Shown: positions 1 to 64,000, numbered from the stretch's first letter. The stretch is DNA of 64,000 nucleotides from an uncultured Actinomycetes bacterium (GCA_963849135.1 CAWKGF010000002.1:957305-1021304); one strand, 5' to 3'. Made by a program: numbers and translations. The notes: generated by a model not told the origin, from the letters alone.

Positions 1-1147
1 CGCACACGTCGAGGACGTGCGCCCCGTCCTTGACCTGCTCCCGGGCCACCTGCACGCACGTGTCCCAGTCCTGGGCGAGGAGCGCCTCCCGGAACTGCTT
101 CGACCCGTTGGCGTTCGTCCGCTCGCCCACCACCAGGAACGAGGTCTCCTGATGGAACGGCACCGCCGAGTAGATCGAGGCGCAGCCGGGCTCCGAGATT
201 TGCTCTCGGGCCAGCGGCGCCCGGTCCAGCCCCACTCGCTCGACGACCGCTCGGAGATGCTCGGGCGTGGTGCCGCAGCAGCCGCCGACGATGTTCACCC
301 CGAACTCGGACACGAACCGCTCGTGCGCGTCGGCGAGCTGGTCGGGTGTCAGGTCGTAGTGGGTGCGTCCGTCAACCACCGATGGCAGCCCTGCGTTCGG
401 CAGGCACGAGAGGAAGGTGCGGGCGTGCTGCCCGAGGTACCGGACGTGCTCCGCCATCTCGGACGGCCCGGTCGCGCAGTTCAGGCCGATCACGTCGGGT
501 CGGAGCGCCTCGAGGGTGGTGAGCGCGGCGCCGATCTCCGAGCCGAGCAGCAGCCGCCCCGTCGTCTCGACGGTGATCTGCACCATCAGCGGCACCGCTG
601 TGCCGGCCTGGCGCATGGCTCGGCGGGCAGCGACGACCGCCGCCTTGCCCTGGAGCAGGTCCTGCACGGTCTCGATCAGGATCGAGTCGACGCCGCCCTC
701 GAGGAGCCCCTCCATCTGGGGCAGGTAGGCGTCGCGCAGCTCGGCGAAGCCGATGTGGCCGAGCGACGGGAGCTTCGTGCCCGGCCCCACCGACCCGATC
801 ACGAACCGGGGCCGGTCCGGGGTGGCGTGCCCCGACGTCACCTCGCGGGCCAGCTGGGCAGCCCGGACGTTGAGCTCCCGAGTCTGGTCGGCGATCCCGT
901 ACTCGGCCAGCACCACTGGGAAGGCGCCGAAGGTGGCCGTCTCGACCGCGTCGACGCCCACGGCCAGGAACTCGTCGTGCATCCGGCGGATCAGGTCCGG
1001 CCGGGACAGCACCAGCTCCTCGTTGCAGCCCTCGAGCGCCGGGCCGCCGAAGTCGTCGGCGGAGAGGTCCTGGCCCTGCACCCACGTGCCGAAGGCGCCG
1101 TCGAAGATGACGACGCGCTCCCGCAGCGCCAAGAGGAGCTCAGCCAC
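1..1147 (-). CDS. metH: Cobalamin-dependent methionine synthase MetH, N-terminal part (homocysteine-binding domain and start of pterin-binding domain); the rest lies beyond the left edge
   Basis: The reverse frame is open from the in-frame TAG at 1157-1159 to the window edge, so it is absent from the ORF track. Start is GTG at 1147. Translation VAELLLALRERVVIFDGAFGTW...LNCATGP...GGCCGTTPEH...ERTNANGSKQFRE matches the MetH Hcy-methyltransferase domain and linker. Confidence 0.9.
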   Translation of the reverse strand, partial: MAELLLALRERVVIFDGAFGTWVQGQDLSADDFGGPALEGCNEELVLSRPDLIRRMHDEFLAVGVDAVETATFGAFPVVLAEYGIADQTRELNVRAAQLAREVTSGHATPDRPRFVIGSVGPGTKLPSLGHIGFAELRDAYLPQMEGLLEGGVDSILIETVQDLLQGKAAVVAARRAMRQAGTAVPLMVQITVETTGRLLLGSEIGAALTTLEALRPDVIGLNCATGPSEMAEHVRYLGQHARTFLSCLPNAGLPSVVDGRTHYDLTPDQLADAHERFVSEFGVNIVGGCCGTTPEHLRAVVERVGLDRAPLAREQISEPGCASIYSAVPFHQETSFLVVGERTNANGSKQFREALLAQDWDTCVQVAREQVKDGAHVLDVC

Positions 1148-1250
1148 GACCTCAGGCTACCGGTGGCCCCTCCCGGGACTGCGCTGCGATTCACCCGTGG
1201 CGGTGGGGGAGCGCGGCCGCAAGGTGGCGGGACCGCGAGTGCGGGGCCGC

Positions 1251-2009
1251 TCAGATCGGCAGCCGGCGGAACACCGGCTTGGGGAGGTGGCGGAGCCCGA
1301 CCATCACCCAGCGCAGCGCGGGCGGGACCCAGATCAGCTCGCGGCCCGTCGCCACGCCGTGGACGATCGCGTCGGCGACGACGTCGGGGGTCACGGCCAG
1401 CGCGGCGGGGGGCAGCCCGGCTGTCATCTTCGAGTGCACGAACCCGGGCCGGACGACGAGCACCCGCACGCCGGACCCGGCCAGCGCCTCGCCGAGTCCC
1501 TGCAGGTAGCCGTCGAAGCCGGCCTTCGAGGAGCCGTAGATGAAGTTCGAGCGCCGCACCCGCTCCCCCGCCACCGAGGACAGCCCGACGATGATCCCGT
1601 GTCCCTGGGCGCGGAGCCGTTCCACCACCGTCGACACCACCGAGACCGCGCCCAGGTAGTTCACCCGGGCGATCTCGGTGGCCAGCGCCGGGTCGTGTTC
1701 GGCCGCGGCCTGGTCCCCAAGCACCCCGAACGTGACGAGGACCAGGTCGACGTCCCCGCCCGCGAACGCCCGCTCGGTCAGCCGTTCATGCGCGTCGCAG
1801 TCGGTGGCGTCGAACGGGAGCTGCTCGAAGGTCGTCGCCCCCGCCTCGGCGAGCTCGTGGGCGAGCTTGTCGAGGCGCTCCGGGTCGCGACCGGCGAGGA
1901 CGACCGACCGGGTGCGCTCCTGGACGAGCCGACGCAGCGTCGCGGCCGCGATGTCCGAGCCCGCGCCCAGCACCAGGACGCGCTGCACCGCGCCGAGCCC
2001 GTCCTCCAT
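1251..2009 (-). CDS. dprE2: Short-chain dehydrogenase, DprE2-like (decaprenylphospho-2-keto-ribose reductase)
   Basis: 252-aa ORF with Rossmann motif VLVLGAGSDIAAA and SDR catalytic YGSSKAG. It starts 4 nt after the stop of the DprE1-like gene on the same strand, which is the conserved dprE1-dprE2 pairing. Confidence 0.75.
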   Translation of the reverse strand: MEDGLGAVQRVLVLGAGSDIAAATLRRLVQERTRSVVLAGRDPERLDKLAHELAEAGATTFEQLPFDATDCDAHERLTERAFAGGDVDLVLVTFGVLGDQAAAEHDPALATEIARVNYLGAVSVVSTVVERLRAQGHGIIVGLSSVAGERVRRSNFIYGSSKAGFDGYLQGLGEALAGSGVRVLVVRPGFVHSKMTAGLPPAALAVTPDVVADAIVHGVATGRELIWVPPALRWVMVGLRHLPKPVFRRLPI

Positions 2010-62970: not shown

Positions 62971-62990
62971 CGCTCGACCGTACCGCCGGG

Positions 62991-64000
62991 TCAGGAGGGG
63001 AGCGGGAGCCGGTGCCGCTGCGCCTTCCCGCCCGGCGTGCGCGGGATCTCGTCGACGACCACGACCTGGCGGGGCAGCTCGGGGGCGCGCAGCCGGGCCC
63101 GGGCGAAGTCGCGCAGCTCCGCGACGCTCGGCTCGGTGTGCGGCGCGGCGACGACCACGAACGCGACCACCCGCTCCCCCCACTCGTCGTCGGGCGCGCC
63201 GGCGACGCACACGTCCGCGACCGCTGGATGCGCGGCGAGGACGTGCTCCACCGCGCTGGGGCTCACGTTCACGCCCCCCGAGATGACCAGGTCCCGTCGG
63301 CGGTCCACCAGGACGAGGGAGCCGTCGTCGGCCCACGCGCCGACGTCGCCGGTGCGGAGCCAGCCGCGGTCGAGCGCGGCCGCGGTCGCGTCGTCGTCGA
63401 AGCGGTAGCCGCGCATCACCATCTCGCCCCGGATCCGGATCTCGTCGCCCGCGCCGAGCTCCACCGCCGCGCCCGGGACCGGCCGGCCGTCGAGCACGCA
63501 GCCGCCGCCGGTCTCGCTCAGCCCGTACGCGTCGACGACCCGCGCCCCGGCCCGCTCCGCCCGGTCGCGCAGGCGCGCGGGGAGCGGCGCGCCGCCGAGG
63601 ACCAGCCGCCGGTACTCGTGCAGCGGCGCGTCGGCGTCGAGGAGGCGGCGGAGCATGGTCGGCACCAGCGACACGACCGTCGCGCCGTCGCGCTCCGGGG
63701 CCGCGCCGACCGCGGCGAGGGCGAAGCCCTCGTGCACCGTGACGCGCTGCCCGCCCACCCGGGCCCGGGCCAGGATGGCCAGCCCGGCCACGTGGTGGAG
63801 GGGCAGGCACACCAGCCACCGGTCCTCGGGGGTCAGCTCGAGCGCGGCGTTGCAGCCCCGCCCGACCGCGGCGAGCCCGGCGTCGGTCAGCTCGACCGCC
63901 TTCGGGCGGCCGGTCGTCCCCGAGGTCAGCACCACCGCCCGCACGTCGTCGGGGGCGGGGACCCCGCCCGGCCAGGCCCGCCGGCCCGCCCGGTCGAGGA
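62991..64000 (-). CDS. AMP-dependent synthetase/ligase (MenE/acyl-CoA ligase-like), N-terminus beyond the right edge
   Basis: VVLTSGTTGRPKAVELT (AMP-binding P-loop), LPLHHVAGL, YGLSETGG, WLRTGDVG, PRTPGGKAQR. The frame stays open to position 64000 (...LDRAGRRAWPGGVPAPDDVRAVVL). Confidence 0.8.
   Translation of the reverse strand, partial: LDRAGRRAWPGGVPAPDDVRAVVLTSGTTGRPKAVELTDAGLAAVGRGCNAALELTPEDRWLVCLPLHHVAGLAILARARVGGQRVTVHEGFALAAVGAAPERDGATVVSLVPTMLRRLLDADAPLHEYRRLVLGGAPLPARLRDRAERAGARVVDAYGLSETGGGCVLDGRPVPGAAVELGAGDEIRIRGEMVMRGYRFDDDATAAALDRGWLRTGDVGAWADDGSLVLVDRRRDLVISGGVNVSPSAVEHVLAAHPAVADVCVAGAPDDEWGERVVAFVVVAAPHTEPSVAELRDFARARLRAPELPRQVVVVDEIPRTPGGKAQRHRLPLPS

Follow-up and report, generated by a model that had tools for sequence, protein, structure and literature searches.

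Do the frameshifts that interrupt conserved genes in a 64,000-nt stretch of DNA from an uncultured Actinomycetes bacterium (GCA_963849135.1, CAWKGF010000002.1:957305-1021304; hereafter the window) belong to the organism or to its assembly? A first-pass annotation, made from the sequence alone, had listed about 25 single-base breaks in genes that include ligA, gatB, ilvB and dprE1, and had read them as an error signature rather than gene decay. We found that the indels exist and are private to this sequence, and that the affected genes are otherwise intact and normally constrained. We infer sequencing or consensus error as the cause, as we infer the platform used, and we put at about 90% the probability that these private, isolated 1-nt indels are consensus errors of an unpolished long-read assembly and not biology.

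The G+C content of the window is 73%. By GatA comparison, the closest genomes are Acidimicrobiales metagenome-assembled genomes (MAGs) at 70-73% identity, GTDB species representatives that are distant and share little synteny. Nine of ten tested open reading frame (ORF) products are on public record (sources NCBI and ENA), all nine from one 1,317,847-bp contig, and they include a 702-aa truncated mutase and a 978-aa S8 protease ORF identical to the window reading. Because the products are recorded exactly as read in the window, the deposited assembly carries the same frames. The record does not state the platform; a single contig of this size fits, and is typical of, long-read metagenome assembly.

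Single-base frame breaks in conserved genes

Frame switches were called independently of homology with a seven-state codon-usage Viterbi path (six frames plus non-coding) trained on the window itself. The path contains 24 same-strand switches away from the stop codon of the frame being left, at boundaries offset by ~0-30 nt from those of the first-pass list. We joined the frames at the switch points and scanned the repaired proteins against NCBIfam and Pfam profiles. DprE1, rhodanese-MoeB, methylmalonyl-CoA mutase, LigA (three junctions), GatB, a histidine kinase, IlvB (two), LigD (two), AtuA (two), a HadA-like dehydratase and a GT2 glycosyltransferase each gave one full-length profile match across the junction or junctions, and repaired products match full-length equivalog profiles above or near the curated cut-offs. 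NCBIfam and Pfam gave no match for a hypothetical protein at 7.4 kb, a methyltransferase at 27.9 kb or the C-terminus of another at 47.4 kb, and the profiles did not settle the N-terminus of an aldolase-like protein, the S8 protease C-terminus or the first two sites in a PAS-GGDEF-EAL gene.

Syntenic contigs were reached through cluster mates of the window SDR protein and the top matches for IlvC, MeaB and an amidase. They come from several independent public assemblies (ENA ERZ19974693, JGI Ga0395750 and Ga0182024, NCBI GCA_003140175.1, ENA k141_2163910 and Logan contigs) and are ~80-83% identical to the window in DNA. In all syntenic relatives, every testable gene is a single called ORF of normal length. 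When the intact orthologues were aligned to the window by tblastn, each came out as 2-4 successive segments that differ in frame, with the breaks at the coordinates that the first-pass annotation had given, and ~27 neighbouring genes kept one frame in the same comparison. Default tblastn statistics were relied on, as searches without composition correction ran high-scoring segment pairs through wrong frames in this high-GC DNA. In nucleotide alignments with strict gap penalties, every site had a single unpaired gap of 1 nt, and these genes contained no further gap of a length other than 3n. With lenient penalties, many 1-nt gaps appeared in compensating pairs, an artefact of the alignment.

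Taken together, the codon-usage path, the profiles and the relatives' ORFs indicate that the listed frame breaks are real and their coordinates accurate to a few bases. Close relatives confirm 21 sites in 14 genes, including three in ligA, three in the PAS-GGDEF-EAL gene, two each in ilvB, ligD and atuA, and those in gatB, dprE1, the moeB-like gene and the methylmalonyl-CoA mutase gene. Two further sites are confirmed by other homology, one in a hicA-like ORF is weakly supported, and a possible one at ~47395 is suggested by codon usage. The density is ~1 site per 2.6 kb, close to the one break per 2.5 kb first estimated, and the spacing (mean 2566 nt, coefficient of variation 0.81) is close to Poisson scatter. 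About 12 lesions are insertions and 10 are deletions.

Apart from these indels, the genes look healthy. No in-frame stops were found in the repaired proteins, which span their relatives end to end with no truncations, bearing out the first-pass observation that nonsense mutations and large deletions are missing. Compared with relatives, codon positions 1/2/3 differ at rates of 0.095/0.074/0.318 in the broken genes and 0.092/0.067/0.350 in intact neighbours; the broken genes carry the same signature of purifying selection. Among the syntenic relatives compared, none shares any of the indels.

Consensus error weighed against other explanations

The window belongs to a Mb-scale contig of an uncultured Acidimicrobiales genome, and the most likely basis of its consensus is noisy long reads, either Nanopore or PacBio continuous long reads (CLR), with no accurate-read polishing and, probably, a modest depth of coverage. 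Single-base insertions and deletions left over in such a consensus, here ~4 per 10 kb (roughly Q34), could then fall anywhere in the sequence. Because ~90% of the sequence is coding, nearly every residual indel would shift a frame, and gene callers would output truncated or split ORFs. A related Nanopore MAG, L003 (CAVSSP010000001.1, MFD09671.bin.2.98, a 1.87-Mb contig), has gatB in three ORFs and gatA in two, relative to the window frames, at ~9800-12900, which is frameshift damage of the kind seen in the window; gatA and gatB are intact in the related MAG contigs L001 and L002, which have k141_-style (MEGAHIT-type) names. Frameshifted gene calls are a documented result of long-read consensus indels, and polishing is stated to be necessary for bins with less than about 40x coverage (PMC9262707). 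In published MAG catalogues made from Nanopore reads only, a single round of Medaka has been the sole polishing (PMC12313526).

The first-pass annotation had counted at least seven breaks in G/C homopolymers. The number stands, with 8 of 24 sites within 2 nt of a run of at least 3, and its value as evidence of error does not, since 30% of random window positions lie equally close (p=0.45); in a sequence of 73% GC, the homopolymer argument is uninformative because 8 of 24 is no more than chance. For runs of at least 4 the figures are 4 of 24 sites against 9% by chance (p=0.18), and only one site (3191) falls in any of the 26 C-runs and 8 G-runs of at least 6 in the window, the places where slippage during replication should be most active. 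Homopolymers do not account for the pattern. Some clearly placed events do change a run, namely C6 to C5 (3191), C3 to C4 (13588) and C4 to C3 (20269), and a base is lost in CGCGCG (20844). Others add a single base away from any run (T at 19373, A at 35566, and C at 6049, 33125 and 49426) or expand one base to two (T at 42127, G at 42369). Most clearly placed events are single-base changes outside runs of at least 3. This lowers the case for homopolymer-type Nanopore error, not for consensus error.

The same result bears on a biological alternative, in which the frameshifts are real and the lineage is in the midst of massive pseudogenisation of very recent onset, such as a bottleneck or the loss of a repair function might bring about. 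Spontaneous bacterial indels are strongly concentrated in mononucleotide runs, and the indels of the window are not homopolymer-enriched; slippage mutation is therefore unlikely, even though some of the indels do occupy short C/G runs, which are open to slippage. The indels are truly present in the deposited sequence, but their biological reality would require that ligA, gatB, ilvB, dprE1 and about 14 other genes be disabled at once within 64 kb, with no nonsense codon, no larger deletion, no relaxation of constraint and no indel shared with a relative. NAD-dependent ligase and GatCAB are indispensable, and this lineage makes Asn- and Gln-tRNA by transamidation. We consider pseudogenisation very improbable. 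Deliberate decoding, by programmed ribosomal frameshifting or transcriptional slippage that still yields full-length proteins, would account for downstream frames that remain open and conserved. However, the orthologues are single-frame in all relatives with nothing conserved at the sites, the shifts go both ways (+1 and -1) and have unrelated contexts, and no X XXY YYZ slippery heptamer is present at any site, apart from a chance GGGCCCC near 21415. We know of no precedent in bacteria for 25 recoding sites in 64 kb. Because the orthologues are single-frame and slippery motifs are missing, programmed recoding is effectively excluded.

Another kind of artefact is also conceivable, in which the indels derive not from raw read noise but from a chimeric consensus of co-assembled strains, or from damage by polishing or frameshift-unaware correction. 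The source is a metagenome contig, and some contexts recur. In an unbiased k-mer scan, four of the 24 sites (6049, 27973, 35566 and 42369), all +1, proved to have the hexamer AGGCTC/GAGCCT no more than 7 nt away, against an expectation of 0.11 sites (Bonferroni p about 0.009). Read on one strand, these four of the 28 window copies, at 6046-6051, 27971-27976, 35565-35570 and 42368-42373, are CC[G/A]AGGCTC. Two other sites, 33125 and 49426, share the identical insertion CCGAGCTG[C]AG (33117-33127 and 49418-49428), and the window has no further copy of that 11-mer. Such recurrence suggests a context-dependent component, from basecaller or polisher behaviour or possibly a modified motif, rather than purely random noise. 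As the hexamer test was prompted by looking at the data, we treat it as a lead only. On the other side, isolated 1-nt indels are not what strain mixing should leave in coding sequence, where substitutions and 3n indels would be expected to predominate, and the overall scatter of sites looks random. We give this type of artefact a slim chance; its practical outcome would be the same, in that the indels are not biological.

We note that part of the error pattern may be systematic and could, with a low but appreciable probability, reflect a real property of the organism's DNA. Should the reads be Nanopore, miscalls tied to such contexts could be the trace of a DNA-modification motif, belonging to a restriction-modification or other methylation system. 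It would be more radical to read the frameshifts as real and tolerated, and this is very unlikely. The possibility that the +1 sites are miscalled Dam (GATC) or GAGCTC sites was rejected, as the relatives differ at the AGGCTC sites (GAGGTCC, GAGCTC and others) and the window contains 423 copies of GATC and 54 of GAGCTC.

Several observations weigh against consensus error as the explanation. The pattern is unlike classic Nanopore homopolymer deletions, with many single-base insertions outside runs, and the hexamer at four +1 sites hints at a systematic, context-dependent component. In addition, the closest relatives found are only ~82% identical in DNA, so that they cannot show the true sequence of this strain, and the searches turned up no other assembly of its population. 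Against these stand private indels, normal constraint, scattered sites and repaired frames free of nonsense codons, and we consider the original reading, error rather than decay, to be supported, its homopolymer argument apart.

Individual sites and neighbouring features

The DprE1 gene (2017-3372, minus strand) has a 1-nt deletion at 3191-3195, with a C5 run in place of the relative's C6 (codon-usage switch 3192/3). Residues 1-59 of the L175 orthologue (451 aa) map by tblastn to 3368-3192 (frame -3) and residues 59-450 to 3195-2020 (frame -2), and the nucleotide alignment has no internal gap other than this site. Repaired DprE1 matches NF053785 across the junction with 563 bits (cut-off 500; residues 14-457 against profile positions 3-449 of 449). 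With a DprE2-like short-chain dehydrogenase following it, this equivalog occupies 1254-3372 in an Acidimicrobiales genome, and the relatives have the pair as well; DprE1/DprE2 are best known from mycolate-containing actinobacteria, and the Acidimicrobiales lie outside these.

The rhodanese-ThiF/MoeB-like gene (5139-6324, minus strand) has a 1-nt insertion at 6046-6050 (switch 6046/7), with GAGG[C]TCC in the window and GAGGTCC in the relative. Its 394-aa orthologue is divided between 6321-6049 and 6053-5139 with a single internal gap, the extra C being at 6049, and the repaired protein matches NF006444 with 567 bits. In a conserved hypothetical gene (7213-7816, minus strand; 199 aa in relatives), the exact base of a net +1 shift within 7433-7493 is ambiguous. 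Residues 1-107 of the L176 orthologue map to 7813-7493 (frame -1) and residues 119-189 to 7458-7243 (frame -2), with the nucleotide-alignment gap at ~7435 and the codon-usage switch at 7433/4.

A HicA-like toxin ORF (8745-8990, plus strand) has a probable 1-nt insertion at 8893-8912 (~8907). Here the first-pass break is weakly supported: joining the frames raises the Pfam HicA_toxin score from 14.1 bits (profile positions 2-45) to 20.3 bits (2-57 of 58), and both fall below the cut-off of 27. The ORF lies in a window-specific island, so there is no close relative for comparison. This island (7858-10248), of lower G+C (about 0.675), is absent from the syntenic relative L175, and also contains an adjoining UPF0150/HicB-like gene (8291-8734) and an IS1595-family (ISXO2-like) transposase (9078-10022), of which a 95%-identical copy is on record from another, 133-kb contig.

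The methylmalonyl-CoA mutase gene (13506-15648, minus strand) has a 1-nt insertion at 13585-13591 (window C4, relative C3; switch 13588/9), which displaces the last ~25 residues. In the 713-aa L175 orthologue, residues 1-698 map to 15645-13552 and residues 686-708 to 13589-13521 in another frame, with a single internal gap at 13588; the repaired mutase matches NF006944 over residues 10-704 with 1248 bits.

Three breaks divide ligA on the plus strand: an extra T at 19373 (GCG[T]CTG), outside a homopolymer (switch 19371/2); a 1-nt deletion at 20266-20271 (20269), where the window has C3 and the relative C4 (switch 20265/6); and a 1-nt deletion inside CGCGCG at 20840-20845 (20844; switch 20852/3). 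The 700-aa L161 LigA aligns accordingly in four pieces, with residues 2-62 at 19178-19372 (frame 2), 74-361 at 19407-20270 (frame 3), 356-552 at 20249-20842 (frame 2) and 554-700 at 20845-21285 (frame 1). Residues 22-678 of repaired LigA match profile positions 2-664 of 664 with 837 bits across all three junctions. The HadA-like FAS1_DH_region dehydratase (21288-21735, plus strand) has a net +1 at 21410-21420 (switch 21429/30). Residues 1-43 of its 149-aa L161 orthologue map to 21288-21416 (frame 3) and residues 27-149 to 21349-21735 (frame 1), and residues 14-140 of the repaired protein match positions 3-131 of 132 in PF13452.

A methyltransferase-like gene (27585-28335, minus strand) shifts by +1 at GCGAGCCTCGG within 27965-27980 (27973; switch 27972/3). 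About 150 distant homologues align in one stretch over residues 6 to ~195 of the repaired protein, across the junction at residue 120, the best of them with 53% identity over 6-248. The gene is one of four in a window-specific 4.1-kb island (25690-29834), an insertion relative to L161/L162 that lies between a PknB-like kinase and an SDR gene.

In gatB (plus strand), an extra C at 33125 gives CCGAGCTG[C]AG (switch 33128/9). Residues 1-19 of the 487-aa L161 GatB map to 33071-33127 (frame 2) and residues 19-485 to 33126-34526 (frame 3), and repaired GatB matches NF004012 over 8-489. Between gatA and gatB, L161/L162 have a gene for an alpha/beta-hydrolase, which is missing from the window.

The class II aldolase-like gene (34554-35711, minus strand) has an extra base at 35566 (CCG[A]GCC; switch 35566/7). 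Residues 1-48 of the 385-aa L161 orthologue map to 35709-35566 (frame -2) and residues 26-385 to 35633-34554 (frame -3). A stop-to-stop ORF in L084 had hinted that the gene needs no frameshift and starts at GTG 35531; this was rejected, as closer relatives have the 385-aa gene and its first 48 residues match the other frame. In the sensor histidine kinase gene (39103-40454, plus strand), a 1-nt deletion lies beside a C5 run at 39284-39288 (switch 39291/2), and residues 1-62 of the 448-aa L173/L161 orthologue map to 39103-39288 (frame 1) and residues 62-448 to 39285-40451 (frame 3).

The two breaks in ilvB (plus strand) are an extra T at 42127 (GAGC[T]TCG; switch 42124/5) and an extra G at 42369 (CCGA[G]GCTC; switch 42368/9), and these are the only two internal gaps in the nucleotide alignment. 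The 94%-identical L173 IlvB (574 aa) aligns with residues 1-225 in frame 3, 224-305 in frame 1 and 306-574 in frame 2, a split reproduced with all 80 more distant metagenome loci. Repaired IlvB matches NF005860 with 916 bits over 1-560.

For the methyltransferase gene at 46514-47397 (plus strand), a possible +1 shift near the 3' end, at 47384-47397, is suggested by the codon-usage path, which continues for another 105 nt in a different frame (switch 47384/5). In the profile scans no family covers the C-terminus, and the gene is absent from the relatives. At 46511-47570, between the plsY and GT2 genes, it stands in place of four genes of the relatives, which encode DegV, Methyltransf_11, a 4HBT thioesterase and a pyridine-nucleotide disulfide oxidoreductase. 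The second GT2 glycosyltransferase gene (48836-49880, plus strand) has an extra C at 49426, again in CCGAGCTG[C]AG (switch 49439/40); residues 6-198 of the 350-aa L173 orthologue map to 48850-49428 (frame 1) and residues 196-338 to 49421-49849 (frame 2), with a single 1-nt gap.

The S8 protease gene (50509-53901) shifts frame in its last C-terminal repeat, at 50575-50580 (~50577, minus strand; switch 50604/5), as judged from an internal repeat and a distant homologue. The alignment with the L109 homologue ends at 50578 (...VPNLI), and the other frame goes on as SVTELESGDVTIFNNAGSVDVVGDVSGYYV, matching the ends of earlier internal repeats (...VPNLVTVEVGAAGQVSFYNNLGSTDVVADVVGYF). The gene is atypical in composition (G+C about 0.685), is scored as non-coding by the codon model, and encodes a protein with ~55% identity to the relatives' orthologue, compared to 80-95% for neighbours. 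Its C-terminal half consists of repeated beta-propeller-like units, and a DUF2142 gene that adjoins it in relatives is missing from the window.

The PAS-GGDEF-EAL gene (plus strand) has a 1-nt deletion at 54128-54131 (switch 54099/100), a net -1 within 54229-54271, where the exact base is ambiguous in a divergent stretch (switch 54235/6), and a net +1 at 55206-55217 (switch 55208/9). From the 952-aa L178 orthologue, residues 1-74 map to 53907-54128 (frame 3), 76-108 to 54131-54229 (frame 2), 126-432 to 54271-55206 (frame 1) and 437-949 to 55217-56755 (frame 2), and the DosP profile spans the third junction.

Both atuA breaks (minus strand) are 1-nt deletions, one near the 3' end at 57288-57303 (alignment gap 57291; switch 57292/3) and the other at 58104-58109, where the relative has GGGG (alignment gap 58104; switch 58107/8). 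Residues 1-153 of the 454-aa L178 AtuA map to 58567-58109 (frame -1), 140-422 to 58151-57303 (frame -3) and 428-453 to 57288-57211 (frame -2); repaired AtuA matches PF07287 with residues 3-445 against positions 1-436 of 437. The ligD breaks (minus strand) are 1-nt insertions at 61884-61900 (alignment gap 61884; switch 61887/8) and 62201-62203 (alignment gap 62202; switch 62199/200). L178 LigD (479 aa) has residues 1-257 at 62970-62203 (frame -2), 258-363 at 62201-61884 (frame -3) and 358-478 at 61900-61538 (frame -1), and repaired LigD matches PRK09632 over 12-484 across both junctions.

Consequences for annotation and comparison with known systems

The breaks hold no biological novelty and are of practical importance for anyone annotating or using the genome. 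About a third of the window genes, with ligA, gatB, ilvB and dprE1 among them, will be called wrongly, as truncated, split or pseudogenes, and completeness estimates, pathway reconstructions and protein databases will inherit the fragments. The first-pass annotation had warned that naive ORF calling would split or truncate these genes. Public records already include, as cluster representatives, the 702-aa mutase in its truncated form and a 259-aa methyltransferase ORF that is probably mis-framed. The latter (P0384) represents a public 50%-identity cluster and matches the repaired methyltransferase-like protein at 97% identity, only over repaired residues 110-248. Its likely origin is a wrong-frame ORF call on the same contig, in which case the error has already spread into protein databases. 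Claims of gene loss or pseudogenisation for this genome should wait for polishing, and at 73% GC, location in a G/C homopolymer is no evidence until it is set against the rate expected by chance.

The window resembles three known situations to different degrees. Programmed frameshifting, as in prfB, dnaX and IS3-family transposases, likewise needs a frame change for a full-length product. Programmed sites recur across orthologues and are marked by slippery or stimulatory motifs of a defined kind, whereas the orthologues of the window genes are single-frame and such motifs were not found at the sites. Reductive decay, as in Mycobacterium leprae, also leaves many genes interrupted by frameshifts in an actinobacterial genome. 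Decaying genomes show nonsense mutations, deletions and relaxed constraint, and lose dispensable, not indispensable, genes; the window shows none of these nonsense mutations, deletions or relaxed constraint.

The closest likeness in our reading is to unpolished long-read (Nanopore or PacBio CLR) assemblies and MAGs, with isolated 1-nt indels at ~1 per 2-3 kb and intact conserved genes split into adjacent ORFs in different frames on a Mb-scale metagenome contig. The published Nanopore pattern is dominated by homopolymers, whereas the errors of the window are not concentrated there and insertions are at least as common as deletions. Frameshift-inducing consensus indels and the need to polish low-coverage bins were described by Sereika et al. 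2022 (PMC9262707), and Kastor tackles the same gene-fragmenting errors (PMC12007338).

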